64,000 nt of DNA from an uncultured Pirellulales bacterium (GTDB lineage: Bacteria > Planctomycetota > Phycisphaerae > Sedimentisphaerales > Anaerobacaceae). Location of the stretch: the NCBI GenBank assembly GCA_964597035.1, contig CAZQWM010000008.1, positions 12,679 through 76,678 of the forward strand, in the 5' to 3' direction. The notes under the pieces are model-generated. The model worked only from the letters and a program-made list of their open reading frames with translations. It did no database searches and was not told the origin of the DNA. Numbering within the stretch: the first letter of the stretch is position 1; each line of letters begins with the position of its first letter. The translations under genes and the position numbers were made by a program. This document shows positions 1,728 through 49,511 of this stretch, in pieces.

Positions 1728-1730
1728 TTT

Positions 1731-2267
1731 TCATTTCTCCGGGGTAGAATCTTGCTCAGGAGCCGATTCGTTTGCTTCGGGCACTTCGCCGCCGAGCAGC
1801 TTTAAAATTTTAAGCAGCGCCTCTAACTGGGCCTTGTCGGCTTCACGTATTTCCCCGCGGAAACCGAGAACGTCGCTTTTCCAGTTATTCAGCTCAATCC
1901 GCATTTCGAGCAGCAGGTCGTTGGCTTCACCCAGCTCTTTTTCCGCCCTTTCCAGCCGGGACCGGCAGCTCTGCATATCATCCTTCAACTGCAGGTTTTC
2001 ATCGTTTAGGTTTTGTGCCTTCTGCCTGAGACCCGATGCCTCCTCGGAAAGTTTTGCGTATTTTTCCGAGAGTTCTATCGCGGATTCGACTGCGGAAGGT
2101 CTCTGTGCCTGCGCCGGCTGGAGTCTCTGATAAGCGGTATTGCCTGAACCAGAAGGACTGTCGAATCGCAAGTCTGAGCCGGCGGGGCCTTTGAAGCCGC
2201 AGCCCATAAAAGGCAGCAGCATTGCAGATGTGGCTATAAATACGATTACTTTTATTCTGGTTTGCAT
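1731..2267 (-). CDS. coiled-coil lipoprotein
   Basis: Signal peptide with lipobox LLPFMGC. The rest is heptad-like and rich in E/K/L/Q (LRQKAQNLNDENLQLKDDMQ...ELGEANDLLLEMRIELNNW). Its stop is 4 nt from the downstream ORF. Confidence 0.6.
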   Translation of the reverse strand: MQTRIKVIVFIATSAMLLPFMGCGFKGPAGSDLRFDSPSGSGNTAYQRLQPAQAQRPSAVESAIELSEKYAKLSEEASGLRQKAQNLNDENLQLKDDMQSCRSRLERAEKELGEANDLLLEMRIELNNWKSDVLGFRGEIREADKAQLEALLKILKLLGGEVPEANESAPEQDSTPEK

Positions 2268-2647: not shown

Positions 2648-2871
2648 GCCCGATAGTCTATGGAGTCTTTACCTGCCTGGCCGTTGTCTGCCTTGCCGGT
2701 GTCATTCTGTTGAGTGTCAGAAAGGTCCTGCTGTTCGGAGGGTGTGCTGTGCTGTCGTTGTTGTCGTTGCTGTCGTCTTTTCTCCGCGCGTCGGTCAATC
2801 GGTGCCAAAGCACCAACGTTTTGCGGGTTTTCCACAGGTTGTATTATGTTGTAATCATTGTCCGGTACCAT
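2644..2871 (-). CDS. hypothetical small basic/Q-rich protein
   Basis: 75-aa ORF overlapping the fliA 3' end by 17 nt and the next ORF by 4 nt. Contains RRAEKRRQQRQQRQ. No family recognised. Confidence 0.35.
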   Translation of the reverse strand: MVPDNDYNIIQPVENPQNVGALAPIDRRAEKRRQQRQQRQHSTPSEQQDLSDTQQNDTGKADNGQAGKDSIDYRA

Positions 2872-3700
2872 CGTATTGCCTCAATTTTACGGAAAGATTA
2901 AAAATCGCAGTTGCGTGTAGCTGGCTGACCCTTGGCTCGGTAATGCCGAATACTTCCGCAATCTGCTTCATAGTGAGGTGTTGCTGATAATAGAGCAGAA
3001 CGACTTCCCGCTGGCGCTGGTCCAGTTGCTGAATGGCTTCCGCAAGCCTGTCAATAAGCTCGGCCCGTTCAAATTCTTCATCGGGGGTTTTGGTATCTGG
3101 TGCGGCGAGTATGTTGCCCAGCGCCGGGCCGTCTTCGCCATATCCGTCGATGGATAGAAATTGCTGCGCTCGTGCGCTTTCGAGAGTCTCATATACCTGA
3201 GAAACAGTTATCCCGAGTTTTTCGGCCAGTTCTGTTTCGGATGGGGGCCGACCTGTTTGCTTTGCTATCTCAACGCTGAGGTTCATTGCCCGGCGAATCT
3301 GCTTGTTGACGGTGGGAGGTATAAAGGCCCATCCCCTGAGCTCGTCGAGTATGGCTCCTCTGATTCTTATGTAGGCATAGGTCTGAAATTCTGCGAAGAA
3401 AGAAGGGTCATAATCCCGTGCGGCCTTAACCAGACCCACTGTACCTGCCGATACGAGGTCCTCGTAGGTAAGCGGCGGACGCAGGTAGCTGGCGGCTCGC
3501 TGGGCAATCTTGTGGACCAGAGGCAGAAACTGGGCGATTTGCTGCTCGTCTAAGCGCTGCTTTTTCTGTCCCGCATAGGCGCGCTTGGCGGCCTTGAGAT
3601 GCCCGCGGGCATCCTTTTTAGTCGCCTGTTCCTGCTTGATAAGGCCTTTGGTCTCAGCCGACACTTTCTGTTTCCTTTCGTTTGCTTGTGTGGCTTTCAA
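2855..3700 (-). CDS. fliA: flagellar sigma factor FliA (sigma-28, WhiG family)
   Basis: Region 2 (LVSAGTVGLVKAARDYDP...FQTYAYIRIRGAILDELR) and region 4 HTH (LLYYQQHLTMKQIAEVFGITEPRVSQLH) are typical of FliA. Confidence 0.9.
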   Translation of the reverse strand: MKATQANERKQKVSAETKGLIKQEQATKKDARGHLKAAKRAYAGQKKQRLDEQQIAQFLPLVHKIAQRAASYLRPPLTYEDLVSAGTVGLVKAARDYDPSFFAEFQTYAYIRIRGAILDELRGWAFIPPTVNKQIRRAMNLSVEIAKQTGRPPSETELAEKLGITVSQVYETLESARAQQFLSIDGYGEDGPALGNILAAPDTKTPDEEFERAELIDRLAEAIQQLDQRQREVVLLYYQQHLTMKQIAEVFGITEPRVSQLHATAIFNLSVKLRQYDGTGQ

Positions 3701-3893
3701 TGATTGCTCTTATCAGAACAGCATTTACGACCTTTACGGCCAGCGATGCCGCTATATACGCCAGGGCTGCCCCGACACAGGCCCTTTTGCAGCACGTATA
3801 AGGCGACAGACCGTAGAACAGTCCTACGATGCTTAGCACAAAAAAAGACAAGACCGCAAAACTTGCCGCTATTGAACGAACGTGTATCAGCAT
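3654..3893 (-). CDS. small two-TM membrane protein (hypothetical)
   Basis: 79-aa ORF with two hydrophobic segments (FAVLSFFVLSIVGLFYGL and VGAALAYIAASLAVKVV). It overlaps the annotated fliA start by 47 nt, so one of the two starts may be wrong. Confidence 0.35.
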   Translation of the reverse strand: MLIHVRSIAASFAVLSFFVLSIVGLFYGLSPYTCCKRACVGAALAYIAASLAVKVVNAVLIRAIIESHTSKRKETESVG

Positions 3894-3937
3894 AGCCGGT
3901 TGTCTCTGTTTGTCTGGTTAGTGTTCATTTTGTTTGG

Positions 3938-6070
3938 CTACTGAACGGCTCCAACTAACTGGTGGTTACCCGGGACCTGAAGCTGCTGTTGCTCGATGGA
4001 GACGGTCTCGAGCGGCTCAACTTCGGTTCCGAGGACGATTTCATCGTAAGTAGCCACGGGCAGATTTGGCACGGTTCGCGACAGCATATCAGCCAGAGCC
4101 GCTCGCAGGCGCGGGTCGCAAAGTAATACGACCTTGTCTTTGCCCTTGTCCATCGCACTACGCCAGGCCTGTGCCGTTTTTCTGCTTAGTTCCATTGTCA
4201 TATCCGCCGGCAAAGCCAGGTTTATCGTGTCTGCTTCCTGTTTGAGCGAGTTCAGCATCTGGTGCTCAAGCGAGGCCTCAAAGGTTATCGCCTGTATCTT
4301 CCCGTTTTCGTCTTTGATTCGGTCGGTGATTGTTCTGCTTAGTGCCTTGCGAACCATCTCCGTCAGAACCGCGGTGTTTTTGCTCTTGGTGGCATACTCG
4401 GACAGTGTTTCGATTATTTTTGTCAGCTCACGGATGGGTATCTCGTCTTTCAGCAGGTTTTTCAGGACGCGCTGCAGCAGCCCTATTGATACGGGGCCAT
4501 CGGCTGCGAGGACTTCGCCTACCAGGGACGGCTGCAGCTTGCGGAGTCGGTCGACCAGCAGTTGAACGTCTTCCCGGGTCAACATCTCGTTGGCGTGGCG
4601 CTTAATGGTTTCTGACAGATGCGTTATAAAAACCGATTCCGGGTCAATAACGGTGTAACCGTTTAGTTCCGCTCTTTCCTTTTCCTCCGGTTTAATCCAC
4701 AGTGCCGGCAGGCCGAAGACCGGTTCGATGGTTTCAATTCCTTTTATCTTTGTCCGCACGGCCCCGGAATCCATTGCCAGCAGCATATCCGGTTCGAGCC
4801 GGCCTCTCGCAACGGGCAAATCAGACAATCTAATTTCATAGGCGTTCGGTTCGAGATTGATATTGTCTCGCAGGCGAACCAGCGGAATGATAATACCTAA
4901 CTGCTGTGCGAATCTTCGCCGAAGAGCGCCTATCCGGTCGAAAATACTGCTGTCTTTTCGTGGGTCAACCATTGCAATTAAACGCACGCCGACCTGCACG
5001 CTGATTCTGTCCAAGTCAAGCAGTTCTTCAACAGGTTGTTCCTGGGCCGATTTCTTTTCACCGGCTGGGGTTGACTTTTTTGGTTTCGGTTTTTCACCCT
5101 TTGCTGCGAGCCGGCCGAGCATGGCGGTGCCGACAGCCAGAAGGATAAACGGCACCTTTGGCAGTCCCGGCACAAGGGCCAGTGCTGCAATCACCAGTGA
5201 CGCAACCGATAACGGCTCACGGGCCTTGAGAAATTGCCTGCCTAAGTCCTGGCCGACGCTGTGCTGTGATGAAATCTTTGTTACAAGAAAGCCGCTGCTT
5301 ATAGCGATTATCACTGACGGTATCTGGTTGACGAGGCCGTCGCCGATGGACAATGTGGAGTATGTCTTTATCGCCGCCAGCACGCTCAGGCCGCGGGAGT
5401 AGCCTATTGCGATTCCGGCGATTATGTTCACGGCGGTAATGATAAGTCCCGCCTTGGCGTCGCCTCGGATGAATTTGCTGGCGCCGTCCATCGCCCCGTG
5501 AAATTCGCTTTCCTTGACGATTTTTGTTCGTCGCTCATTGGCCTGCTGTTCGGTGATAAGTCCTGCGTTCAGGTCTGCGTCGATGGCCATTTGTTTTCCT
5601 GGCATAGCGTCCAGTGTGAAGCGGGCAGCAACTTCGCTGATTCTCTCGGCGCCTTTGGTAATTACTATGAACTGGATAATTACGAGAATGAGAAAGATTA
5701 CCACGCCTACGACAAAGCTGCCGCCCGTGACGAAATTGCCGAAGGTCTGGATGATTTTACCGGCGTTGCCCTGCAGCAGTATCAGACGCGTCGAGGCAAC
5801 ATTAAGGGACAGTCGAAACAGCGTGGTAAACAGCAGAAGCGATGGGAAAGTGGACAACTCCAGGGCCTCTTTGGCAGACAGTGTGATTATAAGGATTGAG
5901 ACCGCCAGTGAAACGCTGCAGGCCAGCAGGATATCCAGCATAGCCGTCGGCAGGGGGATAATCAATGTTGCCAGAACGGTTACCAGACCGCCTGCAATGA
6001 TAATATTGCTGTGCGACATAATGGGAGTATCGAGCGCCGTCGGCAGCGTTGGTTTAGTGGCTTGGACCAT
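3938..6070 (-). CDS. flhA: flagellar export gate protein FlhA
   Basis: Full-length match by eye to FlhA: FPSLLLFTTLFRLSLNVASTRLIL, DAMPGKQMAIDADL, FIRGDAKAGLIIT and the C-terminal cytoplasmic domain. An alternative start is Met18 at 6019. Confidence 0.97.
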   Translation of the reverse strand: MVQATKPTLPTALDTPIMSHSNIIIAGGLVTVLATLIIPLPTAMLDILLACSVSLAVSILIITLSAKEALELSTFPSLLLFTTLFRLSLNVASTRLILLQGNAGKIIQTFGNFVTGGSFVVGVVIFLILVIIQFIVITKGAERISEVAARFTLDAMPGKQMAIDADLNAGLITEQQANERRTKIVKESEFHGAMDGASKFIRGDAKAGLIITAVNIIAGIAIGYSRGLSVLAAIKTYSTLSIGDGLVNQIPSVIIAISSGFLVTKISSQHSVGQDLGRQFLKAREPLSVASLVIAALALVPGLPKVPFILLAVGTAMLGRLAAKGEKPKPKKSTPAGEKKSAQEQPVEELLDLDRISVQVGVRLIAMVDPRKDSSIFDRIGALRRRFAQQLGIIIPLVRLRDNINLEPNAYEIRLSDLPVARGRLEPDMLLAMDSGAVRTKIKGIETIEPVFGLPALWIKPEEKERAELNGYTVIDPESVFITHLSETIKRHANEMLTREDVQLLVDRLRKLQPSLVGEVLAADGPVSIGLLQRVLKNLLKDEIPIRELTKIIETLSEYATKSKNTAVLTEMVRKALSRTITDRIKDENGKIQAITFEASLEHQMLNSLKQEADTINLALPADMTMELSRKTAQAWRSAMDKGKDKVVLLCDPRLRAALADMLSRTVPNLPVATYDEIVLGTEVEPLETVSIEQQQLQVPGNHQLVGAVQ

Positions 6071-6120: not shown

Positions 6121-6510
6121 TTACTGTTCTTTGTCCGATTGTGATTCACCGAGGCCGAGTATCTGTTTGATTCTCACTGCAAACCGTCCATCCACAACGA
6201 CCACGTTACCGGTTGCGAATTTTGTGTCTTTCAGATACAGGTCCATCGGTGCGTCCACGGGTTTGTCCAGTTTTATCACGGACCCCGGACCGAGATGGAG
6301 CAGGCGACGTATGGGCATCTGCATAGTGCCGATTGTTATGGTCACGGGGATGCTCATATCGAGCAGTATATCGATGCTTCCACCGGCGCTTGTGGCGCTG
6401 GTTTCGGCGGCCTCGGGAAAATCAGCCGACTGAGCTTGTTTTTTCGAATCGGCAGCAGCTTCCTGATTTTTCTCGACCTTTTCTTCTACGGCTTGGGCTG
6501 ATTGTGGCAT
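6121..6510 (-). CDS. fliN: flagellar motor switch protein FliN
   Basis: C-terminal SpoA/FliN domain: ILLDMSIPVTITIGTMQMPIRRLLHLGPGSVIKLDKPVDAPMDLYLKDTKFATGNVVVVDGRFAVRI. Confidence 0.9.
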   Translation of the reverse strand: MPQSAQAVEEKVEKNQEAAADSKKQAQSADFPEAAETSATSAGGSIDILLDMSIPVTITIGTMQMPIRRLLHLGPGSVIKLDKPVDAPMDLYLKDTKFATGNVVVVDGRFAVRIKQILGLGESQSDKEQ

Positions 6511-6549: not shown

Positions 6550-7527
6550 TTATTTTTTTTCGAAAGCGGCTTCCGTTATTGCCACAGCGTATTTGCCGCC
6601 TGATTGTGCGCAGCGACCGCGAAAAAGCGTCCGGCCGGCGGCAAGCAATAGCACCGGCTCATCGATTTTTTTATCCAGCAGCAATATGTCATCGGCAGAG
6701 AGGTTCAGTACCTGCTCGACCGTTACGGCAACACTTGCCAGTTGAGCAGTAATCGGAATTGATATTTCTTCAATGTGATTCTGAATCGCACGGGCAATGT
6801 CCTTGGCGGAAAGTTTGTCCGCTGCCTGCGCCGATTCAGCGACTATCGGTGCAAGCTTATCGCAGAAAATGAGGATATGGGCCTCCGAGCCGGTCTCGGA
6901 GTCACTTTCTCTGACCTGGAAGGTGATTTTGCAGAACTCTTCAGCGCCCTTGAGCTGAAGCGGCAGACTGTCCGTAATAGCGTCGTCGGCCGGATGGAAA
7001 CCGCACTTGTCGCCGGCCTCGGCAACCGCCTCTACTATAAGCGAAGCCATATCGAACAGAAGCGAGGCCTCAAGCTCGGATATATGCCTGTTCGCATCCT
7101 CTTTCGATTCCGTGTCACCGAGAAGCTGAGTCGTCCAGAGCTTGGCGGTCTGCGGCGGTATGCTGACAAAGCCGCAGGGTTCTCGCTCGTCCGTGCAGAA
7201 AGACAGGTAATAGTTGACGGGGCCTTTTCCCTGGCTTGCTGTATCCTGTCCGAGAAACTGCCCCGCGAAGTGTTCGCTGGTCGAGCTTATCTTCACCTCG
7301 AAACTGTGCTGGCACAAAGCGGCGAATTTCTCCGCAATCAGCTCCGCTAAGCTGGAGGCCAAAGCCGTCAGCTTTTTCATTTGCCGGCTGTTGAAAAAGT
7401 GAGGCTGATGCCAGTCGTATTCGCTCGCCTCTATCTGTTTGCTGTCATCGGGGGCCTTGGAGCCGATGACAGCAAGAAGCTGCTGTATCTTTGCTCTTCC
7501 TGGATTGTTATCAGTCATCCGGGTCAT
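6550..7527 (-). CDS. fliM: flagellar motor switch protein FliM
   Basis: YDWHQPHFFNSRQMKKLTAL corresponds to the FliM YDFxxP...L motif, and the C-terminus is SpoA-like (LLLAAGRTLFRGRCAQSGGKYAVAI). The start is placed at Met 7527 (or 7518), next to the fliL stop. The longer ORF to 7608 would overlap fliL. Confidence 0.85.
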   Translation of the reverse strand: MTRMTDNNPGRAKIQQLLAVIGSKAPDDSKQIEASEYDWHQPHFFNSRQMKKLTALASSLAELIAEKFAALCQHSFEVKISSTSEHFAGQFLGQDTASQGKGPVNYYLSFCTDEREPCGFVSIPPQTAKLWTTQLLGDTESKEDANRHISELEASLLFDMASLIVEAVAEAGDKCGFHPADDAITDSLPLQLKGAEEFCKITFQVRESDSETGSEAHILIFCDKLAPIVAESAQAADKLSAKDIARAIQNHIEEISIPITAQLASVAVTVEQVLNLSADDILLLDKKIDEPVLLLAAGRTLFRGRCAQSGGKYAVAITEAAFEKK

Positions 7528-8102
7528 TGCACGGCGAATTCCTTTATCAAAATCCTTTCGATAACCGGCTTGCCATCGGGGAACAGTCGCTCGTTGAATG
7601 TGTCGCAAAGCTCCATTTGTATTCTCTTGAGGTTTTTGTCGCCCCTCGTTGCCTCCACGTTCAGTCCTGCAAGATATATGGTCAGCAGGTTTGTCAGGAG
7701 CGGCTTTTTCTGTTCGAGAAATGCATTGCCCTTATCGGGTGCAAGTCCGGCGCCAATCTCGAGTGTCAGGGCCGCTCTGACATAGCGTGTCGCGCCCGGT
7801 TCATCGAGATTGGCCACAACCGGCTCCAGGTCGTAAAACCATGTATTACCCGCTGCAACGTCGGGAGCGTTGCTCGCTGGCTGTTCGGTGGCGGCTGTTT
7901 CCTCGGCCGGCGGGACGGTTGTTGTAGTTTCAGTGTTACCGCTGCCTGCGAACAACCGACCCAGCCCGAGTCCGGCGCCGGCACAGACGACTACTACCGC
8001 CGCGATAATTATCATCGGGACAATCGAACCCGACTTTTTCTGTGCAGCAGGTTCGTCCGCTGCGTTTTCCTGTGGATTTGCTTGAGCTTCTTCTTCAGCC
8101 AT
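7524..8102 (-). CDS. fliL: flagellar basal-body-associated protein FliL
   Basis: One N-terminal TM segment (IVPMIIIAAVVVVCAGAGLGLG) and a FliL-type C-terminal domain (YVRAALTLEI...LLTNLLTIYLAG...LKRIQMELCDTFNERL...ILIKEFAVQ). Confidence 0.85.
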   Translation of the reverse strand: MAEEEAQANPQENAADEPAAQKKSGSIVPMIIIAAVVVVCAGAGLGLGRLFAGSGNTETTTTVPPAEETAATEQPASNAPDVAAGNTWFYDLEPVVANLDEPGATRYVRAALTLEIGAGLAPDKGNAFLEQKKPLLTNLLTIYLAGLNVEATRGDKNLKRIQMELCDTFNERLFPDGKPVIERILIKEFAVQ

Positions 8103-8144: not shown

Positions 8145-9647
8145 CTAAACCGGCTGCAGGCTTCCTTGCTGCCGGTACCTTTTAATCTTGTCGCGCAACG
8201 TTCTGTCGCTGATGCCCAGTGCCTTTGCGGCCCTGGTCTGATTACCGTCTGTTTTCTTGAGTGTTTCGAGGATGGCTCGGCGTTCCAGTTGGGCAAGCGG
8301 CACGCCCGCCAGGCCGATGTGCGGCTGTGTTGTTAAATCCGGTTGCTGAACGCTGCCATCCACTAATTCCGGAAGTGGCTGCAGCTCGTTAAAAAGCCAG
8401 GATACGTCGGCTAATGATAGCGTCTCACCCACGCCGAGTATCAACGAGGTCATTACGACGTTTCGCAACTGGCGGACGTTTCCAGGCCAGTGATATTTAG
8501 AGAACATCTCCATCATTGCCGGGTCCAGACGGGTTATGCGACGATGTGATTGCCCCGCGTGGAGATTTATAAAATGCCAGACTAGCTCCGGCAGGTCCTC
8601 GCTTCGCTGCCGCAGTGGAGACACAATCAGACGAACTCCGCAAAGTCGGTAATAAAGGTCCTGACGGAACCTCTGCCTGGCGACCTCCTGCAACAAATCC
8701 TTGTTTGTCGTGCTTATGATACGGACGTCGACTCTTATGTTTTCGTTGCCGCCGACGCGCTGAAGGTCCTGCTGTTCGAGCACCCGAAGGAGCTTTGCCT
8801 GAAACCTCAAAGGCGTTTCGCTGATTTCATCGAGAAGCAATGTCCCCCCGTGTGCCGACTCGAACCGCCCTTTGCGCTGGGCGTAAGCTCCCGTGAATGC
8901 TCCTTTCTCGTGTCCGAACAGCTCGCTTTCGAGCAGTGTCTCGCTAAGCGCCGCACAGTTTATCTTCAAAAAAGGCCCCTGGACGCGCCTGCTGTTGTAA
9001 TGCACAACGTATGATACGAGTTCTTTTCCCGTTCCGCTTTCGCCGCTTATCAGAACGGGAACACTTGTCGGTGCGACTTTTCTGGCAAGGTTTACCGTCT
9101 GCATAAGCCCGGCACTTCTGCCGACGATTTTGTAAAGGCATCCGGTGCCCTCTTCGGTTGATGCAATGGTTCTTATGGGCCTGTTGGGTACGACTGTATC
9201 GAGCAGCTTTTCCAGCCGGTCGTGGTTTATCGGCTGAGGCAGGAAATCGCGGCAGCCGGTGTGCACTGCTTTAACGGCTGTTTCGACTATCTGTTGTTGC
9301 GTGCTTCTTCCGGGCACGTCATTGCATGCAATCATAACTATAGGCAGTTCCGGCCAGAGGCTCCTGATTCTTGTTACTAATTCAAAGTTATGGTCCTTCT
9401 GCGAGGGCCTGCCGTTTTGGGCAGTTATCGTTTCCTCCGTCAGCACAAGCCCGCAGTCGTTCTTGTCCAGCAAATCGAGGGCGACTTTTTCGTCGCCGGC
9501 AACCATCGCCTGTATTGCCTTGCGGGCAAGTGTCTCCAGAACAGGCCGAATAATGTCGGGTGACTGACTTATCAGTAAAACGTTTGTTGATGGGGCTGTC
9601 CTGCCGTCTGTTTGTGAGTTTGTCGCCGATGTTTCAGTCACTTGCAA
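8145..9647 (-). CDS. sigma54-dependent transcriptional activator (NtrC family) with degenerate receiver domain
   Basis: AAA+ core with Walker A GESGTGKE, GAFTGA (EKGAFTGA) and ESELFGHE, plus a C-terminal Fis-type HTH (GNQTRAAKALGISDRTLRDKIKRY). The N-terminal receiver-like domain lacks the usual DD/D/K residues. Confidence 0.95.
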   Translation of the reverse strand: MQVTETSATNSQTDGRTAPSTNVLLISQSPDIIRPVLETLARKAIQAMVAGDEKVALDLLDKNDCGLVLTEETITAQNGRPSQKDHNFELVTRIRSLWPELPIVMIACNDVPGRSTQQQIVETAVKAVHTGCRDFLPQPINHDRLEKLLDTVVPNRPIRTIASTEEGTGCLYKIVGRSAGLMQTVNLARKVAPTSVPVLISGESGTGKELVSYVVHYNSRRVQGPFLKINCAALSETLLESELFGHEKGAFTGAYAQRKGRFESAHGGTLLLDEISETPLRFQAKLLRVLEQQDLQRVGGNENIRVDVRIISTTNKDLLQEVARQRFRQDLYYRLCGVRLIVSPLRQRSEDLPELVWHFINLHAGQSHRRITRLDPAMMEMFSKYHWPGNVRQLRNVVMTSLILGVGETLSLADVSWLFNELQPLPELVDGSVQQPDLTTQPHIGLAGVPLAQLERRAILETLKKTDGNQTRAAKALGISDRTLRDKIKRYRQQGSLQPV

Positions 9648-9667: not shown

Positions 9668-10630
9668 TTAGTGGTTAAGCTCCCGGATTAGTTTGCCGGG
9701 CTGGTCCTTCTGGTACCAATCGATAACGCTGTGCCGGGCCTTTGCGATTTGGGCCCAGGGCGAATCAGGATGCACCCTTAAAAGCTCTGCGTAACTTTCC
9801 CGGGCGGTGTTGGGGTCGTCATGCTTGAGACAATTGCCTATCTGGAAAAGTATCCACGCCCTTTCGCCGGCCATGTTTGGGTCGTCCGCGGGTATTGAAA
9901 CAAGGGCCTGTTTGTAGCATAATCCCGCCGCACGGGGCTGGCCGCTTTGAAACAGAACCTCTGCGAGTTGCAGAGGTTCTGCAACGCGGTTGGGCTCTAT
10001 GACTGCTTGTCGTACCATTTGGAGCGTCTCGTCGCTCATCGATTTTGTGGACGTTTCTGACTGAGTTGGTGTTGCGTCGGATAATGGAGCTGGTTCATCA
10101 GGGGCGATGCCCGGTTCAGGTTCAGAGGTATCACTTGCTATGGCCTCGGCTGTCTCCTGAGATTGGAATCGGACGGAGTTGATTTGCGAAATCAGACGTT
10201 TTAAATCCTCGCTTTTGTCGTCGGCGGAGCTTGAATCCAGCGGGCTTATTCTGCTTTTCCTCAGTTCCGATTCCAGTTGTTGTGCGGACGCCTCAGTGCT
10301 ATTGGCGAAACTGTTCGTGTGTGGCGCTTCTTTTACGGTCGACGCCAGATTTGCTGAAAGACTATCGCCCGGCTGGGGTGCTTCAAGATTGACTGGGCCG
10401 GCGTGCACGGGCATTTGGATATTGAGCGAGTTTGATTCCCCTCCGATTTGCGCCGAATCGACCGCCAGCAGCATGGCAGGATTAAGCTCTTCGATGCTAA
10501 ACTCGTCTGCAATTGAGAGTCCGTGTAAAAAATACGCTATTATTAACGCAAATGCGCATACTCGCAGATATCTGCCTCGGGCCGACATTTGCCCTTGCTG
10601 TGGGTCTGCATTTTTGATTATTACGTTCAT
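9668..10630 (-). CDS. signal-anchored protein with C-terminal TPR-like domain
   Basis: N-terminal hydrophobic segment YLRVCAFALIIAYFLHGLSIA, an acidic/Ser-rich middle and a C-terminal TPR-like region (AEVLFQSGQPRAAGLCYKQAL...ILFQIGNCLKHDDPNTARESYAELLRVHPDSPWA). Its start overlaps the upstream ORF stop by 4 nt. Confidence 0.6.
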   Translation of the reverse strand: MNVIIKNADPQQGQMSARGRYLRVCAFALIIAYFLHGLSIADEFSIEELNPAMLLAVDSAQIGGESNSLNIQMPVHAGPVNLEAPQPGDSLSANLASTVKEAPHTNSFANSTEASAQQLESELRKSRISPLDSSSADDKSEDLKRLISQINSVRFQSQETAEAIASDTSEPEPGIAPDEPAPLSDATPTQSETSTKSMSDETLQMVRQAVIEPNRVAEPLQLAEVLFQSGQPRAAGLCYKQALVSIPADDPNMAGERAWILFQIGNCLKHDDPNTARESYAELLRVHPDSPWAQIAKARHSVIDWYQKDQPGKLIRELNH

Positions 10631-13539
10631 TTTTCCGTCGTATCGCTCCGGTTTGATGCCATCAGCAGCGCCAGTGCCGCCTTGTCATAATTTTGTTGCT
10701 TGCTGTAGGCCGCGGCCAGCGTTCTTGAGGCCTGCTCTTTTATCTGTGTCGAAGCCGATGATTCCATAAGTTTTGTGCAGATGGAAATGGCCTGCTGAAT
10801 GTCGTTTAGTTTGAGGCACACACCGGCAAGTTCGAGTGAGACCTGATGGGCAATGGGGCCCGGCTCAACTAATGAAAGCACCTCTGTCAGATGTGCCCTC
10901 GCACCGACGTGATTCTGTATCGCAATTTCGCATCTGGCCAACTCTAAAATTATGCTGGCTCTCAGGTGGGGCTCGGTAAGGTATTGTGCTCTTTCGGCAA
11001 GCACCGTTGTTGCGTCTTCGGCAAGCCCTATTGCGCGCAGGGTCTTGCTTTTCAGCAGCAACAGCGTTGTTACCTGTTCCTGAGAAAAGGGCCAGGAGCG
11101 TATGTTTTCGATAGCGCCGAGGGCCGCAACAAAATCATCTTGCTTAAGCTGTGCCTCCACAAGGGCCGAGACCGCGTCGATACACTGACTGCTTGATGCT
11201 GCTTTTCTTGCGGCGATATCCAGTGCCTCACAGGCCTGCTGCGTTTTGCCCAGAGCTAGATTTGCCCTGCCCAACAGAAGATAGGCCGTATAAAGCTCAG
11301 CTTCTGCGGGTTGCGACATTTGTTGTTGCCGGACGGATTGGAGATATCGCGCAATCCATTCTGCCGCAGATTTGTAATCTTTTGTCTGATAAAAGCACTT
11401 CCCTGCCCCGAACGCGGCAGCGGCCCTTATTTCCGCTGAAAACCCGAGACTATGTGCTTTTTTGTATAGTGAGCAGGCATCGTCATATACCTCAAGTTTC
11501 ATCGTTGTATCGGCGAGGTCCAGATGGGCCTGGCCAATCAGCTCGTTGTCCGGGTATTGTTCGATAAGCTGCTGGAGGTCGCTGCCGGCACCGGTGTAAT
11601 TGCGCAGGGCTGACTTGAGCCGGCTTGAACGCAACAGAGCACAAGGTGCCAGTGGCGTTTGTGAATAACGATTAGCTACCAGTTTGTATTCGGCGATTGC
11701 CTCCACCACCTGCCCCCTGCTTGCCTGCAGGACTCCGAGTGCAAAGTGAGCGTTTGTCACACGCGGGTCGTCGTTGTATATCAGCAGCCAGTTTCTCCAT
11801 AGCCATATCGCATGTTCGCTGAGCATCCGTGTATGTTCGGACAACGATGAATACTCTGTTGGGTCGGTTACAATTACGGTCCCGGCTTCGTCAATAAGTG
11901 CAAGCAGCCCGACAGTTCCGGCGGTGGTTGTTACTATCTGCTCGGTTGTCGCCGCGGTTAAATATACCGTAACGGAGCGGTTTCGCAGATGCGATTGCTG
12001 CCCGGCTCCACTTGTACCTTCGCTCTGCCACGCCCATTTGACGTCAATTCCGGAATTGGCGGCGAATCTCGCCATTAGCTCCTCGATACTTGGTCCGTTG
12101 CAGACCACGGACCAGCGGCTCAGTGTTCCCGTTCGTTCGGCCGATGAAACCTGCGGGGCCAACAGCCCACTGTTTAGCCGTTCGATACCCGAATTCAAAA
12201 GGGCCGTTAGCTCGGTTTCGTTGAGTCCTGCCAGTGGGTCTTCGTCCGTCGGGTGGAACCATAGCTGGTCCGGCAGCTCGCTATCTGCGTCGCATAGCGA
12301 CAGCACTTGTCTTGTCAGCGCCTCGGCGACGACAAAAAGACAGTCTCGCTCCAGCTCAAGTGCCCATTCATGCTCGGTCGTCAACACGCCGGTCAGTGCG
12401 ATGGTCTTGTATGCATTTGTCCGGGCCTTGAGGTACTGACCTGATTCGAGTTCGAGCAGCGAGCAGTGGAAATTTGCAAGCGTCCTTACAACTACCGAAC
12501 TGCTTTTAGCGGCTTCTCTGAACAATTTACCGGCCCGGTCGAGCTTCATTTGCTTCTCAAGACAAAGGGCCATTCGCAGCTTGAGAAAGTCCTTCATCAG
12601 TTCGAAGTCCCCACCGTAGAGATTCAGGTACAAGCGCTCATAGCTGCGGCACGCCGCTTCATAATCGCCGCCCGCGTAATAACTCTCGGTGGTCTGGAGA
12701 GATACCGCCTCGGTCTGCACAACATCAGAAGATGAAGGTTCTATTATGTGCCTGTCCTGGTTTCCCTGTTCGGTTGCCAACCTGTTCGCGTCTGCAGTTG
12801 CCGGAAATTCCTGTTCCGCATATACCGGATATGGCACTCGTTGCACGGGTGGGGAGTGGAAAATCGAATAGCTCAAAAGTCCTGCACTAATAAGGATGCT
12901 GATGATAAGAACAAGTTGCACTAATGAGAATATGCGGCTGCGAGAGTGCTTCAGGACAGGTTCGCTGTCTGTAATTGCGGCCTCGGTGGGCTCAGGGCCG
13001 GTGTAGCTTATTTCCGCAGTCTCCTCCGCAGCAATCTCCTCTGTTTCCTTGGTATCTATAGCCGGCTGTGTGGCAACAATATCTTCACTAGGCGGTTCAA
13101 TTTGCATCGCGGGCTGTAATGGACTGTCCGTTTCTGCGCCCGAGTCTTCCATTTCTCCGCCCGCGGACACGTCGGTGGGCATATCGGTAGTGTCGGCAGG
13201 TTCGTTTGCCGGCTGCTCGGCAGTCTCACTCGAAACCGCTGGCTGTATGGCTGGTTCCGTGGTAACCTCTTCGGTCTTGGCGGGAGTATCTACCGGTGTA
13301 TCAGTTGCGGTGTCCGATTCGTTTGGTGGGTGCTTTATAGCTTCACTGGGCCGCTCAGGTTGCGCAGCCGCTTCTGCGGTTTCGGCTTTGACCTGCGAAG
13401 ATGCATCCTTGGGAACCTCGGTTTCGACCGGTAACTTGTTCTGCGGCTCAACAGGTTTTTCACTCCCTGCCGGTGCCTTGGCTGCCGGGCTCTTGCGGGT
13501 TTTTTTTCTTCGCGTTACTTTTTTCTTACGCTCTACCAT
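10627..13539 (-). CDS. 970-aa single-pass membrane protein with a very large TPR-repeat domain
   Basis: Basic N-terminus (KKKVTRRKKTRK), a roughly 190-aa acidic P/E/T/A-rich region, one TM segment (IFSLVQLVLIISILISAGLLSYSIF) and then about 740 aa of TPR-like repeats (many A-x-x-x-Y/F-x-x-A-x-x-x-G patterns). Confidence 0.75.
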   Translation of the reverse strand: MVERKKKVTRRKKTRKSPAAKAPAGSEKPVEPQNKLPVETEVPKDASSQVKAETAEAAAQPERPSEAIKHPPNESDTATDTPVDTPAKTEEVTTEPAIQPAVSSETAEQPANEPADTTDMPTDVSAGGEMEDSGAETDSPLQPAMQIEPPSEDIVATQPAIDTKETEEIAAEETAEISYTGPEPTEAAITDSEPVLKHSRSRIFSLVQLVLIISILISAGLLSYSIFHSPPVQRVPYPVYAEQEFPATADANRLATEQGNQDRHIIEPSSSDVVQTEAVSLQTTESYYAGGDYEAACRSYERLYLNLYGGDFELMKDFLKLRMALCLEKQMKLDRAGKLFREAAKSSSVVVRTLANFHCSLLELESGQYLKARTNAYKTIALTGVLTTEHEWALELERDCLFVVAEALTRQVLSLCDADSELPDQLWFHPTDEDPLAGLNETELTALLNSGIERLNSGLLAPQVSSAERTGTLSRWSVVCNGPSIEELMARFAANSGIDVKWAWQSEGTSGAGQQSHLRNRSVTVYLTAATTEQIVTTTAGTVGLLALIDEAGTVIVTDPTEYSSLSEHTRMLSEHAIWLWRNWLLIYNDDPRVTNAHFALGVLQASRGQVVEAIAEYKLVANRYSQTPLAPCALLRSSRLKSALRNYTGAGSDLQQLIEQYPDNELIGQAHLDLADTTMKLEVYDDACSLYKKAHSLGFSAEIRAAAAFGAGKCFYQTKDYKSAAEWIARYLQSVRQQQMSQPAEAELYTAYLLLGRANLALGKTQQACEALDIAARKAASSSQCIDAVSALVEAQLKQDDFVAALGAIENIRSWPFSQEQVTTLLLLKSKTLRAIGLAEDATTVLAERAQYLTEPHLRASIILELARCEIAIQNHVGARAHLTEVLSLVEPGPIAHQVSLELAGVCLKLNDIQQAISICTKLMESSASTQIKEQASRTLAAAYSKQQNYDKAALALLMASNRSDTTEK

Positions 13540-13642
13540 CGTTTTAATAGCAAATGACCCAGCTCGGCCAGTCTCCGTTTTACGCCGGTTGCTGTTGAAA
13601 TTGCGAGCCAGCGGCCCTTAAGCTTTTTTATGGTGGAATAGG

Positions 13643-13658
13643 TGCAACAGCTATGCCA
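13643..13658 (-). promoter_or_regulatory. sigma54-type promoter (TGGCAT-N5-TTGCA)
   Basis: The reverse complement of 13643-13658 reads TGGCATAGCTGTTGCA. It lies about 105 nt upstream of the 970-aa ORF start at 13539. Confidence 0.65.
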
Positions 13659-13822: not shown

Positions 13823-15265
13823 TCAGCCGGCGTATACGGCTTCAGATACGGCAAGATTGGAAGATTCGTCTTCAGGGGGTCTGGGGATGTAGGTGCCTCT
13901 TTGAATATTATGCTGTTTTACCTTGGCATACAGCGTGGCGCGAGTTATGCCCAGCAAAGCAGCCGCCTTGGTCTTCTGCCAGCCACTTTCCTGTAGAGCA
14001 CGCGCAATAAGCTCACGTTCCGCCTTCTCGAGCGAGAAATTCTGGATGCTGCTGGTGGCAGTCATAGTTAGGCCGGTTCCAGGCGTCTCGAAAGGGTCTT
14101 CAGATTCAATCATGATACTGCTTAGCCCGATTTTTTCGGTGTTCTCAAGCAATATTGCCCGTTCGATTACGTTACGAAGCTCACGGACATTGCCTGGCCA
14201 GTTATGCTTTTCCAGTGCCTCCAGGGCCATTTGGGTAAGTGCAGTGATATTGCCTGCCTTTGCCGGGCAGACCGTTGATGTCTTTATGAAGTATTCGGTT
14301 AATAGCCGGATGTCGTCTTTTCGGTCGGAAGACCTCAGCGCAGTAATAGCGATAGGGAATATGTTCAGCCGATAGTAAAGGTCTCGACGGAAGCGATTGG
14401 CCTTGACCTCCTCTCTAAGGTTGCGATTGCTCGATGCGATTATTGTGGCTTTGCAGGTCAAATCCGCGGTGCCGCCGACCTTTCTGAAGGTCTTTTCCTG
14501 TAAGACACGGAGAAGTTTCGCCTGCAGCTCCAGTGGCATCTCACTGATTTCGTCGAGAAAGATTGTGCCCTCGCCGGCCAGTTCGAGTAGGCCCGTTTTG
14601 TCCCTGTCGGCACCGGTGAAGCAGCCCTTAACGTGCCCGAACAGCTCGCTTTCGAGCAGGGTAGCCGTCAGCGCAGCGCAATTGACGGCGACAAATTTCT
14701 CATTTGGATGACGAAGAGTGTGAACAGCTTTGGCGGCCAGTTCCTTTCCAGTTCCTGTTTCACCGGTTATTAACACGGGATTGCAGTTACTGCCGGCAAC
14801 AAGTCTTATCATTTTCAACGTGTTGAGGATGGCTTTGCTTTTGCCGGCCATTGAAACCGATATAGCAAGCTCGTCGCCGAAAAAACAATTCTCGCTGCTA
14901 TCGCCGGAACGTTGCCCAAAACGAATTTCATTAAGTATCTCACTCAACCGGTTATCGTCGCAGGGATGGGACAGGTAGTAAGGCGCCGTGACCTTCTTAA
15001 GCTGTTCAAACCAGGCAGGTGGGTTGCTGTTACTGCCTATGACCAAAGAAGCGATTCGCGAGATTTTATCGGTCCGTAATAAGAGCAAGTCGATTTCTGC
15101 CGGCTTGAGAAGGTCATCGAGAAGAATAAGATCAGGAGCAACAGTTTCGAGTATGTCAGTGGCCTCGGCGGCGTCGTCTGCTACGAACACCTCCTCCGCG
15201 ATACGGCGCGCGAACTGATGGAGTTGAGTTTGCCTGCTCAGTACAACAACTCTGCGGAGAACCAT
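13823..15265 (-). CDS. sigma54-dependent transcriptional activator (NtrC/Fis family) with atypical receiver domain
   Basis: Walker A GETGTGKE, GAFTGA variant GCFTGA (VKGCFTGA), ESELFGH, and a C-terminal HTH (WQKTKAAALLGITRATLYAKVKQH). The N-terminal receiver-like domain keeps a candidate Asp (LILLDD) but lacks the DD pair and the Lys. Confidence 0.95.
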   Translation of the reverse strand: MVLRRVVVLSRQTQLHQFARRIAEEVFVADDAAEATDILETVAPDLILLDDLLKPAEIDLLLLRTDKISRIASLVIGSNSNPPAWFEQLKKVTAPYYLSHPCDDNRLSEILNEIRFGQRSGDSSENCFFGDELAISVSMAGKSKAILNTLKMIRLVAGSNCNPVLITGETGTGKELAAKAVHTLRHPNEKFVAVNCAALTATLLESELFGHVKGCFTGADRDKTGLLELAGEGTIFLDEISEMPLELQAKLLRVLQEKTFRKVGGTADLTCKATIIASSNRNLREEVKANRFRRDLYYRLNIFPIAITALRSSDRKDDIRLLTEYFIKTSTVCPAKAGNITALTQMALEALEKHNWPGNVRELRNVIERAILLENTEKIGLSSIMIESEDPFETPGTGLTMTATSSIQNFSLEKAERELIARALQESGWQKTKAAALLGITRATLYAKVKQHNIQRGTYIPRPPEDESSNLAVSEAVYAG

Positions 15266-17964: not shown

Positions 17965-18996
17965 GTGAATAAAATGAATGCACCGGCTCTTATCGCCATC
18001 TGGTTAGCGGAGGGTGTACTGGGGCTTACTGCGAGAGAAAGATGGCAGGCAATGCAGCAGGTCGAAAGTGGTTCAGCAAACAACAGATGGTTTAGCATCG
18101 GTATGGTGCTTCTGCTTGTATTTTCTGCTGTTGCACTGGTGGTTGTGACTCTGCTCAGGAAGGCCCGGGAAGTCAAGAAAGCAGAAAAGGCATTTTCTGA
18201 TAACGCTGCTCGAAAGGGCTTGACCGAATCCGAATCCGACCTGCTTATGGCCGTTGCAGTCAAGGCCGGCCTTATTAAGGCCGAGGCTATTTTCAGTTCC
18301 GGTGCCGCTTTCGACAGTGGTTCTGCGGCGTTGCTTAAGGAGAGTCTTTCAGCGGGCAAGCCGACCAGCGAAACGAGTCGATTGGAAAAGCAACTTGCCG
18401 ATTTGCGAAATAAAATGGGCTTTCGCAAGGCGGCTTCGGCTCCTGCTGGGGCTCCGGCGCGACAGAGCGCTTCGGTGCCTGCAAAGGCACCGATGGCTGC
18501 AAAACCAAAGGCATCCGATTCGCGACCGGGTGAAACATCGTGGCACGAGACGGCTTTTGTGGCATTGTTTCCGTTTTCCACCAAATCGGATTCTGTTTCG
18601 CAGGTCAATTCTCAACTTCCGCAGTTCGTACCTGCGGTTGTCACCGGACTGGTCGGTCGCGTTGTCTCCCTCGAAACAACACTGCCGGCAAATGTCGGCG
18701 ACAGGGTTCTGGCTGTGATTGGGCCGACAGGTACCCGCAGTAATGGCGAACAGGTCGAATGGCTCGAAGATGTCGGACTTGTCCAGCAAAGTGCTCAGCC
18801 GGCTCAGTCAATGAAGGAAGAAAAAGCGCGTCGTCTGTCAATAGCGCTTGTCGGGCTTGAAGAAGCACAGATTGCTCAGCTTGCACAGACTACAGGAAGT
18901 ATAAAGAAAGAAAAGGTACCACAAACAGATACGCAACCTCCTGAACAGACACAAGATAAATCCCAACCCGTAGCTGCAAAGGAGCAGACGAACTAA
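17965..18996 (+). CDS. hypothetical membrane protein embedded in the hook/rod operon
   Basis: 343-aa ORF with GTG at 17965 or ATG at 17974. Two N-terminal hydrophobic segments and an A/S/P-rich linker. No family recognised. It is tightly packed between flgE and flgF, and its stop overlaps the flgF start. Confidence 0.55.
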   Translation: MNKMNAPALIAIWLAEGVLGLTARERWQAMQQVESGSANNRWFSIGMVLLLVFSAVALVVVTLLRKAREVKKAEKAFSDNAARKGLTESESDLLMAVAVKAGLIKAEAIFSSGAAFDSGSAALLKESLSAGKPTSETSRLEKQLADLRNKMGFRKAASAPAGAPARQSASVPAKAPMAAKPKASDSRPGETSWHETAFVALFPFSTKSDSVSQVNSQLPQFVPAVVTGLVGRVVSLETTLPANVGDRVLAVIGPTGTRSNGEQVEWLEDVGLVQQSAQPAQSMKEEKARRLSIALVGLEEAQIAQLAQTTGSIKKEKVPQTDTQPPEQTQDKSQPVAAKEQTN

Positions 18997-27674: not shown

Positions 27675-27754
27675 TCGTTTTACGGCGTCAAACCGGGTGC
27701 ATAAAGTCGGTGCACCTGTGTTTTGTTGAAGGTCAGATTAGGGAGCGAAAGTTA

Positions 27755-29188: not shown

Positions 29189-29195
29189 CCCCCAA

Positions 29196-30806: not shown

Positions 30807-30817
30807 GAATCGGCAAA

Positions 30818-31480: not shown

Positions 31481-31794
31481 GTGTAGAAGAAGAGATGCAA
31501 CTGCTGACTCAACTTACCGAGCTGCTCGAAAAACAGCTCGACCGGGCTCGGCGGGGAAGCTTCACGGATATGGAGCGGTTGGCTGCAAAGTGCGAACCGC
31601 TTGTAGAGAAAATAACGCAAGCCCGACTGCTTGAAAGGCCGGAATACAAAGTCAGCCGGGAGCATCTTGCTGAGCTTTATCATCAGCTTCAGCTTGTGCT
31701 TTCGGCGCAAAAAAACGTTACTGCTGAAAAACTTGGCTCGATTCGCAAAAGTAAGCGCGTTGTCTCGGCCTACCGTGACAATGCGCACCGCTGA
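31477..31794 (+). CDS. small helical protein, FlgN/FliT-like chaperone candidate
   Basis: 105-aa all-helical ORF (LLTQLTELLEKQLDRARRGSFTDMERLAAKCEPLVEKI) whose ATG overlaps the TPR gene stop (ATGA). The resemblance to FlgN-type chaperones is in pattern only. Confidence 0.45.
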   Translation: MSVEEEMQLLTQLTELLEKQLDRARRGSFTDMERLAAKCEPLVEKITQARLLERPEYKVSREHLAELYHQLQLVLSAQKNVTAEKLGSIRKSKRVVSAYRDNAHR

Positions 31795-48797: not shown

Positions 48798-49511
48798 CTA
48801 TTTCTGCTCTACTATTTCTTTTAGTCTCTGACAGAGAACTGCCGTCAGCTTCGGTTCCGTCGCAACCAGCTCTGCGAGAAGCTTCGCCTTGGTCCTCTCC
48901 GTCATATAGAATAAAATTTTCACGGCGTCGTCCATCGCTCCGCCACGCACTCTGCCGGTCTCCACTTGACTGGCACACATGTTACGTATAATTTTGCTTG
49001 CGCTGGCCGGGTCCATCTTGTCGTAGGTGGCCGCTATACTGGCCAGGTTCGCCTTTTCACTCTCTTCTATCTGCGTCCGTGTTTCCAGCAGTAGCTTTCT
49101 CTGCTCCTTAAGGTTCACCACCAGAGTTGCCAGCTCAACGCGTATCCCGTTCAGCTCGTCGATATCGTTCTTTAACGTCTCCTGGGTCATCTGGAGTCTC
49201 GCCTCGCGAACCTCCAGCCCTCTGACCTTGCCCTGGTAATCGTTTATCTTTTCACGCACCTCGTAAACGAGACTGTTGAGCCGTTTTTCACTAAGACCTT
49301 TTTTTGTTTCCCTCCTCTCGGTAATTTGCATATCCGCGGGGAAAACGGCGGTGCTTTCGACCGTTGGCTGTTCGGGCGTTTCAGTTTGTTGGGATGCAGC
49401 CGGCTCCGGCGGTGGCGGGGCGGGACCCAGGAGCATAAACGCCGCCGCAAATGTCACCCCGAAGCTCAAAAGTCCCGCTCCGGCCGCGATTATTATCTGT
49501 TTCTTGTTCAC
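48798..49511 (-). CDS. MgtE-N-like flagellar protein (YlxF/FlbB-type)
   Basis: N-terminal TM segment, a coiled coil, and a C-terminal ATYDKMDPASASKIIRNM...AVKILFYMTERTKAKLLAEL that resembles MgtE-N repeats. Its position after fliJ matches B. subtilis ylxF. Confidence 0.6.
   Translation of the reverse strand: MNKKQIIIAAGAGLLSFGVTFAAAFMLLGPAPPPPEPAASQQTETPEQPTVESTAVFPADMQITERRETKKGLSEKRLNSLVYEVREKINDYQGKVRGLEVREARLQMTQETLKNDIDELNGIRVELATLVVNLKEQRKLLLETRTQIEESEKANLASIAATYDKMDPASASKIIRNMCASQVETGRVRGGAMDDAVKILFYMTERTKAKLLAELVATEPKLTAVLCQRLKEIVEQK

Follow-up and report, generated by a model that had tools for sequence, protein, structure and literature searches.

Two tetratricopeptide-repeat envelope proteins encoded at the head of a putative sigma54-dependent flagellar operon: candidate motor accessories of Planctomycetota

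Introduction

What might two envelope proteins built from tetratricopeptide repeats (TPRs) contribute to the flagellum when their genes head an operon for motor and export components? This question is raised by a stretch of 64,000 nucleotides (nt) from an uncultured Pirellulales bacterium (assembly GCA_964597035.1, contig CAZQWM010000008.1, positions 12,679 to 76,678 of the forward strand), the whole of which is referred to here as the window. Two consecutive open reading frames (ORFs) on its minus strand encode a protein of 970 amino acids (aa), TPRbig (10627..13539), and one of 320 aa, TPRsmall (9668..10630). An earlier sequence-only reading of this region had suggested that the two proteins might be lineage-specific scaffold or collar components of the motor located in the periplasm, or else a polar landmark.

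The E-ring protein of flagellar motors is widespread; it is known as FlgY in Campylobacterota, FlbB in spirochaetes and MotE in alpha-proteobacteria, and in these three other phyla it is paired with periplasmic TPR proteins, namely PflA/PflB, FlcA/FlcB and MotC/MotK (PMC13023049; PMC11870540). Since the sequences of PflA and PflB are not conserved, any multi-TPR protein encoded near flagellar genes is a potential homologue for Feng et al. 2025 (PMC11870540). For many cultured Planctomycetes, their Supplementary Table 5 pairs a FlgY homologue (about 213-280 aa) with at least one TPR protein, most of these being about 750-990 aa in length (PMC11870540). Planctomycete TPR proteins encoded next to flagellar genes appear there as "potential PflA" or potential PflA/B homologues, among them entries of 991 aa and 342 aa for Pirellulimonas nuda and proteins of about 865 aa for Rhodopirellula or Pirellula; the cultured Sedimentisphaera species are scored as non-flagellated (PMC11870540).

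The answer that we favor, and to which we give an even chance of being right, is that TPRbig and TPRsmall form a structural accessory of the motor specific to a Phycisphaerae/Sedimentisphaerales type of lineage, in which TPRbig would act as a PflB-like scaffold anchored in the inner membrane.

Results

The TPR pair is a fixture of flagellar gene clusters

TPRbig has 61 homologues with 34-61% identity, encoded in Planctomycetota metagenome bins and either left unnamed or annotated as 'TPR repeat protein'. When a profile of its residues 276-600 was searched, 328 clusters (50% identity) were found at E <=1e-3, and as 304 of these were also recovered at E <=1e-10, we are dealing with a discrete family that has nearly no twilight tail. 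One genome per GTDB species was scanned, and the species-level analysis of loci covers 80 genomes out of 186 matched species. These 80 are labelled Sedimentisphaerales, Phycisphaerae, Phycisphaerales, Planctomycetota or 'uncultured Pirellulales' (the Pirellulales label is unconfirmed); one stray 3-kb contig bears the label Aegiribacteria. A family-specific profile search aimed at named cultured Planctomycetia returned 10 fragments only.

Synteny was assessed by tblastn with 14 window proteins against all loci examined, and the gene calls of the related loci agree with the order so obtained. In every locus with enough flanking sequence (the 80 species and several metagenome loci), the genes are arranged as EBP1-TPRbig-TPRsmall-EBP2-fliL-fliM-fliN-flhA-fliA, with EBP1 and EBP2 coding for sigma54 enhancer-binding proteins (EBPs) and with flgD-E-x-F-G positioned divergently upstream of EBP1; there is one distant exception, found in the loci L086 and L087. 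TPRsmall is always located immediately downstream of TPRbig in the loci examined, and the pair resides inside flagellar clusters in all of the related ones. These loci support the view that the pair is flagellum-specific. Wherever flanks are visible, conservation of the neighborhood and of the promoter extends to loci with as little as about 40% protein identity. Across the syntenic loci, identities range from 40-60% for TPRbig and from 28-52% for TPRsmall; typical values are about 42% and about 35%, respectively, versus about 73% for FlhA and about 75% for FlgG. The pair evolves faster than the core parts of the flagellum, as one would expect of peripheral accessories.

In the distant exception, represented by the family member P0255, the quartet EBP1-TPRbig-TPRsmall-EBP2 is intact, and it is followed by flgB-flgC-fliE-fliF-fliG-fliH-fliI-fliJ-(218-aa ORF, FlbB-like)-motA, not by fliL-M-N-flhA. 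The conserved core is consequently the pair together with the two activators and not its linkage to fliLMN-flhA. This invariant unit, held together even in L086, speaks for an alternative that we consider unlikely overall: the TPR pair might serve as an assembly checkpoint that senses the state of the periplasmic structure or of the basal body and controls the co-transcribed EBP2, as is the case for FliX-FlbD in Caulobacter or FlgS-FlgR in Campylobacter. Linkage to the activators may, however, be mere inheritance of an ancestral operon.

A conserved sigma54-type promoter element heads the putative TPR operon

The putative TPR operon is headed by a sigma54-type element, TGGCAT-N5-TTGCA (TGGCATAGCTGTTGCA), which can be read directly on the minus strand (13658-13643); the ATG of TPRbig follows after 104 nt. 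Its presence ahead of the 970-aa gene had been claimed before, and the claim is strengthened by the wider survey. Exact matches to TGGCAY-N5-TTGCW occur 4 times in the window versus 0.26 expected, and none of 100 shuffles (0/100) contained 4 of them. All four lie in intergenic regions and face flagellar operons: in addition to the element ahead of TPRbig, they head flgD-flgE-x-flgF-flgG-flgA-flgH-flgI (15738, plus strand), flgB-flgC-fliE-fliF-fliG-fliH-fliI-fliJ (55730, minus strand) and fliK (56064, plus strand). Furthermore, 65 of 69 related loci have an exact motif in the interval that separates EBP1 from the TPR gene. The -24 GG and -12 GC elements, their spacing, the position and the two adjacent EBPs are what one would look for in a sigma54 promoter, and these data support the assignment of the TPR pair to the sigma54 flagellar regulon.

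EBP1 (13823..15265, minus strand; Pfam Sigma54_activat, E 9e-62, together with HTH_8) adjoins TPRbig directly upstream and is a candidate for the activator of this promoter. EBP2 (8145..9647, minus strand) starts 20 nt downstream of TPRsmall and combines the activator domain (Sigma54_activat, E 2.6e-67) with a receiver domain (Response_reg, 24.5 bits; both Pfam). It is followed on the same strand by fliL (7524-8102; Pfam FliL) after a gap of 42 nt, by fliM (6550-7608; FliMN_C), whose ORF overlaps that of fliL, by fliN (6121-6510; FliMN_C) after 39 nt, and by flhA (3938-6070; FHIPEP) after 50 nt. Pfam thereby verifies the previously described run of a sigma54 activator, fliL, fliM, fliN and flhA with short gaps. 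With no gap beyond 50 nt and no excess of terminator-like sites from EBP2 through flhA, these five genes make up the putative remainder of the TPR operon.

TPRbig and TPRsmall share four nucleotides: the end of the former, GAA AAA TGA, overlaps the beginning of the latter, ATG AAC, so that the ATGA overlap that had been noticed at this junction can be read directly at 10627-10630. The public gene call of TPRsmall (P0062, 306 aa) begins at Met15, which would abolish this overlap; the upstream start agrees with the N-termini of the aligned homologues. Among the relatives, the junction varies from a 4-nt overlap up to a 58-nt gap, and it is therefore the tight linkage that is conserved and not the ATGA overlap itself.

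The receiver domain of EBP2 speaks for the checkpoint alternative as well. Its acceptor region (aa about 60-75) is atypical, reading LVLTEET in the window and DLVFTSD, DLVFTGE or non-acidic variants in the orthologues. As no histidine kinase was seen in the flagellar cluster, EBP2 may escape control by phosphorylation.

TPRbig is predicted to place a large helical-repeat domain in the periplasm

The N-terminus of TPRbig is basic (10 K/R in residues 1-20) and is followed by an acidic segment, residues 21-200, that is rich in E (16%), A (14%), P (13%) and T (12%) and contains 41 D/E versus 11 K/R. Both segments form the predicted cytoplasmic tail (12940..13539, minus strand; pLDDT, the per-residue confidence of the model, <35). 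A single transmembrane (TM) helix follows at aa 203-227 (12859..12933, minus strand), with a Kyte-Doolittle peak of 2.54, a modelled helix at 206-227 and a conservation of 0.58. The N-terminal features that had been recognized by eye are thus borne out by composition and hydrophobicity. As the residues KHSRSR flank the hydrophobic peak on its N-terminal side, the positive-inside rule predicts an N-in/C-out topology; the proposal that the bulk of the protein is periplasmic gains support from this, as a prediction.

An AlphaFold2 model of TPRbig, built on 36 family members (mean pLDDT 67.8), resolves the periplasmic part into several modules. The tail (aa 1-204) and a 48-aa linker behind the membrane (aa 228-275) are disordered in the model, both at low confidence. 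Next come an N-terminal helical-repeat domain with seven helices (aa 281-415; 12295..12699, minus strand; pLDDT about 80-93, conservation 0.66), to which TPR_6 yields a weak match only, a middle alpha/beta domain of about 120 aa (aa 441-560; 11860..12219, minus strand; pLDDT <50) and a C-terminal TPR solenoid of 24 helices (aa 566-965; 10645..11844, minus strand; Pfam TPR_16, TPR_6 and TPR_21), whose pLDDT is about 90 or higher nearly throughout. The last five residues (966-970) are again disordered. With 743 aa and 31 repeat helices in the model, the periplasmic part has the size of about 740 aa that had been estimated; that it would consist of TPRs throughout does not hold, given the linker, the seven-helix repeat, the alpha/beta domain and the 24-helix solenoid.

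Conservation differs strongly between the two sides of the membrane. Each of the periplasmic domains reaches a column conservation of 0.62-0.72, versus 0.35 for the cytoplasmic tail and 0.33-0.35 for tail and linker. The tail measures 13-131 aa in the homologues versus 203 aa in the window protein, and for 129 out of 202 positions of the latter, most relatives offer no equivalent. The window protein retains the basic start that many relatives have in common (MAIRRRKITREKK / MVERKKKVTRRKK). It contains none of the [DE]-[LIV]-F-[AG] motifs (ELFA, EIFV, DIFA, DVFAG) that occur in 2-3 copies in the tails of many homologues (e.g., P0038-P0061). With the tail being short or unaligned in relatives and the motifs differing, the acidic segment is best viewed as a local expansion and not as a feature of the family.

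These data weigh on two of the alternatives. The repeated [DE]-[LIV]-F-[AG] motifs in the homologues speak for a checkpoint role; yet the tail is the sole cytoplasmic part, it is the least conserved one, its length varies from 13 to 203 aa, and the motifs are wholly absent from the window protein. Moreover, 740 conserved periplasmic residues lie far beyond the needs of known checkpoint factors; FliX is a protein of 144 aa.

A polar landmark of the FimV/HubP kind, which would recruit flagellar assembly to the pole via an acidic disordered region, shares with TPRbig its bitopic nature and a long acidic low-complexity region. The 180-aa acidic disordered segment and the TM helix of the window protein speak for such a landmark, as does the fact that neither FlhF nor FlhG was recognized between flhA and the gene for the FliA-like sigma factor (3700-3938) or in the other window ORFs scanned, a check that was non-exhaustive. 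However, FimV and HubP carry LysM in the periplasm and their acidic region at the cytoplasmic C-terminus. The topology of TPRbig is inverted, with an N-terminal cytoplasmic acidic part and a large conserved periplasmic part; neither a LysM domain nor the FimV C-terminal motif was found with Pfam, and the acidic tail is specific to the window protein, being short or absent in its relatives. The landmark proposal is therefore not borne out; we regard it as very improbable and reject it on these grounds.

A middle domain of TPRbig possibly related to secretin N0/STN modules

The middle domain of TPRbig displays the conserved sequence RWSVVCNG-x-IEEL-x-ARFAAN..D..W ... R.V.LYLPAAT.QQ...AAG.VGLLA..D..G.V.I.DP. 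A presumed resemblance to the secretin N0/STN module was taken as a lead only and was then tested. Pfam TcpQ matches were obtained for 14 of the 22 family members, none of them reaching the gathering score (best E 8e-4), and Secretin_N and DotD were each matched by single family members, again below threshold. When the domain was modelled alone with AlphaFold2, its secondary structure elements were arranged in the order strand-strand-helix-strand ... helix-strand-strand, with a pLDDT of only 51; in the full-length model, strands are present at 465-558 inside the alpha/beta domain, at a pLDDT of <50. In a Foldseek search with the isolated model, 8 of the 12 top matches were of the N0/STN type or FecR type (E 0.3-2.4), namely the N0 domains of GspD, PulD, PilQ and InvG, the signaling domains of FecA and FoxA, and an anti-sigma factor of the FecR type; given the pLDDT of 51, these matches are not significant. 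A profile of the middle domain found zero matches among PDB sequences. We therefore assign the domain to the N0/STN-like modules only tentatively.

TPRsmall is a conserved partner with a C-terminal TPR-like domain

The 320-aa protein had been described as signal-anchored with a C-terminal TPR-like domain, and both ends of it agree with that description. Its N-terminal hydrophobic segment (about aa 17-41; 10508..10582, minus strand; Kyte-Doolittle peak 1.9 at residues 22-42, preceded by RGRYLR) is conserved in the homologues and would be either a signal peptide or a signal anchor. Many homologues possess a Cys after this segment; as it is absent here, we rejected a lipoprotein reading of the window protein. 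The conserved C-terminal domain (aa 215-320; 9671..9988, minus strand) matches Pfam TPR_14 (E 5.7e-6) and contains most of the 24 columns that are invariant in the TPRsmall family (73 homologues). The TPR-like sequence comprises about 100 aa only, no beta domain is predicted, and no NCBIfam family matched the protein. Several homologues carry the JGI label 'TolA-binding protein'.

Searches recover generic TPR proteins

In Pfam and NCBIfam, only generic TPR models matched TPRbig and TPRsmall, and all family-specific models remained below their cut-offs. The best family-level match of TPRbig is to the YbgF/CpoB-type TPR model TIGR02795 (68.6 bits vs. a cut-off of 90.1; E 7e-19); NF008068 scored 20.4 bits vs. 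a cut-off of 383, and BamD (OM_YfiO, E 1.6e-9), PorW and MamA matched lower, all below cut-offs. Family profiles run against all PDB sequences retrieved consensus TPRs, CpoB (6g5s, E 5e-7) and LGN, and neither PflA, PflB, FlcA, FimV nor HubP. In the Foldseek search with the full AlphaFold2 model, eukaryotic TPR scaffolds dominated, and the Campylobacter jejuni scaffold chains 9hmf_K and 9hmf_L appeared at ranks 32 and 38, with a TM-score of 0.18-0.27 and below many unrelated TPR proteins. None of the collar models in NCBIfam matched either protein at E <=0.01. Since the matches are generic only, there is no evidence for membership in any characterized scaffold family, and homology to PflA, PflB, FlcA or BB0236 found no backing in either sequence or structure.

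The same searches bring in a further alternative, that of a transient assembly or envelope-remodelling factor. The pair might act in the periplasm as a YbgF/CpoB-, BamD- or PilF-like TPR chaperone or adaptor that helps the rod, the P/L rings or the stators to pass the cell wall or to attach to it, without belonging to the finished motor. At the family level, TPRs of the YbgF/CpoB and BamD type do match best, and the 'TolA-binding protein' name on several TPRsmall homologues points in the same direction. TPR_6/YbgF-type repeats are a feature shared with CpoB and BamD, and TPRsmall is built like CpoB in having a signal sequence, a conserved short helix and a TPR at its C-terminus. In addition, N0/STN-like domains are docking modules in secretion systems, and no FlgJ-type peptidoglycan hydrolase was recognized in the cluster. 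However, all of the YbgF/BamD matches lie below the family cut-offs and reflect merely the TPR subtype, an inner-membrane anchor with a 400-aa solenoid is more typical of stoichiometric ring components, and the genetic context is flagellar, with no tie of the pair to tol-pal, to BAM (the beta-barrel assembly machinery) or to peptidoglycan synthases. We consequently deem a transient factor improbable.

An E-ring candidate is encoded next to the stator genes

In other phyla, TPR scaffold proteins are paired with an E-ring protein. A candidate of the FlbB/FlgY/MotE type, 237 aa in length, is encoded between fliJ and motA (48798..49511, minus strand). Its TM helix is accompanied by a P/E-rich linker, a coiled coil and, at the C-terminus, a helical head. 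Among the NCBIfam models, collar_FlbB matches it best (E 2.2e-5; 24 bits vs. a cut-off of 110), it has no Pfam MgtE_N match, and it is 31% identical to the ORF at the same fliJ-X-motA position in L086. Position and size agree with the description by Feng et al. (PMC11870540, PMC13023049). This ORF therefore probably codes for the FlgY/FlbB/MotE-type E-ring protein of the lineage, and its presence makes the TPR pair a natural candidate for the spoke or rim partner.

Next to it, one motA (48025-48978, minus strand; Pfam MotA_ExbB) is followed by two tandem motB paralogues (47324-48025 and 46599-47327, minus strand), both with a clear MotB_plug domain in Pfam. Their OmpA peptidoglycan-binding domains fall below threshold (E 0.0014 and 0.014, respectively). 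Such weak OmpA domains would fit stators that need a protein scaffold as their anchor, without demonstrating such a need. MotA and MotB are the presumed clients of the scaffold.

Further observations on the flagellar cluster

The FliM candidate is divergent: Pfam recognizes its FliN-like C-terminus only, and TIGR01397 scores 62 bits vs. a cut-off of 219. Since the TTG-initiated ORF overlaps fliL by 85 nt, the true start of fliM is probably further downstream. After flhA, a FliA-like sigma factor is encoded at 2855-3700; in related loci, the gap between flhA and fliA contains only an ORF of about 80 aa. Downstream of this sigma factor gene (1047-2267, minus strand), a coiled-coil protein of 178 aa and a protein of 226 aa are encoded, and for the latter an LpoB-like match stays below threshold (E 4e-4); in the related loci L001, L002 and L004, fliA is likewise followed by ORFs of similar sizes. 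The two proteins are possible further motor accessories.

An ORF of 343 aa between flgE and flgF (17965-18996, plus strand) belongs to no Pfam or NCBIfam family and is kept in place in nearly all related loci at 24-50% identity; some of its homologues carry a faint PilZ match in precomputed annotation. Inside the flagellar cluster, between flgL and fliD, lies a glycosylation island (27710-40308, plus strand). It codes for one TPR-GT1 and one GT2 protein, a TPR protein of 220 aa and a sulfatase, and it includes a 2340-aa ORF in which five GT2 domains are combined with a capsule-synthesis domain. The island presumably serves to modify flagellin.

Discussion

The data reported here lend themselves to a model in which EBP1 and sigma54 would fire the promoter of the TPR operon early in flagellar assembly. 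TPRbig would then insert into the inner membrane such that its variable tail stays in the cytoplasm and about 740 aa reach into the periplasm, where two helical-repeat arms would be joined by a small interaction module resembling secretin N0/STN domains. TPRsmall would be exported and bind via its conserved C-terminal TPR-like domain. Together, the two proteins would form an assembly that surrounds the MS ring and the E-ring of the FlbB/FlgY type and that, in concert with FliL, holds or positions the MotA/MotB stators. Such would be the role played by PflB/PflA in Campylobacterota, MotC/MotK in alpha-proteobacteria and FlcA/FlcB in spirochaetes.

How closely does the pair resemble these systems? 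Feng et al. define PflB by a TM motif and beta structure in the middle of the TPR array (PMC11870540). TPRbig possesses the TM motif and a long array that is predicted to be periplasmic (TM 203-227, 31 helices, N-in). In PflB, too, an N-terminal TM anchor precedes a large TPR array of about 800 aa in the periplasm that is broken by beta structure, a break which is modelled in TPRbig at low confidence; the organism studied here also encodes a FlgY/FlbB-type E-ring candidate, and early sigma54-dependent expression would be expected. The two proteins differ in that the element in the middle of PflB is a single strand paired with the C-terminus and that of TPRbig a domain of about 120 aa, in the long cytoplasmic tail of TPRbig and in the lack of any similarity at the level of sequence or profile. 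Furthermore, the partner of TPRbig is a small TPR protein, whereas that of PflB is the AMIN-TPR protein PflA. The spoke partners of FlgY/MotE, that is PflA, MotC, MotK and CC_2058, are periplasmic TPR proteins encoded in or near flagellar clusters, just like our pair. However, PflA and MotK have a cleavable signal peptide, an N-terminal AMIN domain or beta-sandwich and about 17 TPRs; TPRbig lacks these N-terminal features and is membrane-anchored, its model predicting a disordered 200-aa tail and a TM helix in place of a beta-sandwich, and the TPR-like fold of TPRsmall extends over about 100 aa only. A similar plan is also realized in Borrelia, where FlcA, FlcB and BB0236 form an inner-membrane TPR scaffold around the TM-anchored FlbB; here the differences are that the collar models miss the TPR pair, that the FlbB match in the window is below the cut-off and that planctomycete flagella are external. 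The T-ring of Vibrio, made from MotX and MotY, is likewise a two-protein periplasmic accessory with a Sel1/TPR-like repeat protein that stabilizes the stators. Yet MotX is a small soluble protein and MotY carries an OmpA-like domain; in its architecture the T-ring is unrelated to our pair, and its genes are not part of the fliLMN operon.

Several lines of evidence support the view of TPRbig and TPRsmall as a structural accessory of the motor: the synteny, the promoter conserved in 65 of 69 loci, the even conservation of the periplasmic domains, the combination of TM helix and solenoid, the E-ring partner, the listing of similar proteins by Feng et al. (PMC11870540) and the weak OmpA domains of the MotB paralogues. 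Other observations weigh against it. The characterized scaffold proteins have no homology to the pair detectable with Pfam/NCBIfam, PDB profiles or Foldseek, so that a scaffold role rests on context and analogy, and because TPR arrays are generic interaction modules, similarity in fold is uninformative about function. Motor involvement is predicted from gene context, the extent of the operon and the activity of its promoter are predicted from the DNA sequence, the model of the middle domain is of low confidence, and its N0/STN assignment comes from sub-threshold matches. In addition, the pair sits between two sigma54 activators even where other genes follow downstream, which a regulatory role would explain equally well. 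For the lineage-specific periplasmic scaffold or collar proposed by the sequence-only reading, this means that the flagellum-specific context, the sigma54 regulon, the periplasmic bulk and an E-ring candidate now stand on its side; homology to PflA, PflB, FlcA or BB0236 does not.

The structural and the regulatory explanation might also be combined. One could envision an envelope-spanning device with a dual purpose, in which the pair would use the secretin-N0-like module to build a stator-holding ring in the periplasm around the FlbB-type E-ring and the tail would report completion of this ring to the kinase-less EBP2. Such a device, which we judge to be quite unlikely, would represent an exaptation of secretin parts independent of that described for Campylobacterota, and it would account for the constant association of the pair with the two sigma54 activators.

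That TPR proteins encoded in flagellar clusters are possible PflA/PflB-like scaffolds is already known at the level of a catalogue, bacteria of the Planctomycetes-Verrucomicrobia-Chlamydiae (PVC) superphylum included (PMC11870540). Since Feng et al. 2025 list similar planctomycete TPR proteins as "potential PflA", the novelty of our proposal is moderate. What is new is the recognition of a discrete family in 186 species, its domain plan of TM helix, repeat, N0/STN-like module and solenoid, the obligatory small partner, the conserved sigma54 promoter and the unbroken linkage to two activators.

None of the flagellar motors of Planctomycetota has been dissected. Which motor accessories are ancient and which were invented within a lineage is a matter of active research (E-ring/spoke hypothesis, Feng et al. 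2025; FEMS review 2026), and the TPR family provides a concrete target across hundreds of species that suits both cryo-electron tomography and genetics. Should the pair control EBP2, it would represent a new kind of checkpoint in flagellar assembly. Should TPRbig and TPRsmall truly form a ring around the stators, then the architecture of an E-ring plus TPR spokes would be extended to the PVC superphylum, and the flagellar motor would have recruited secretin-like parts for a second, independent time.

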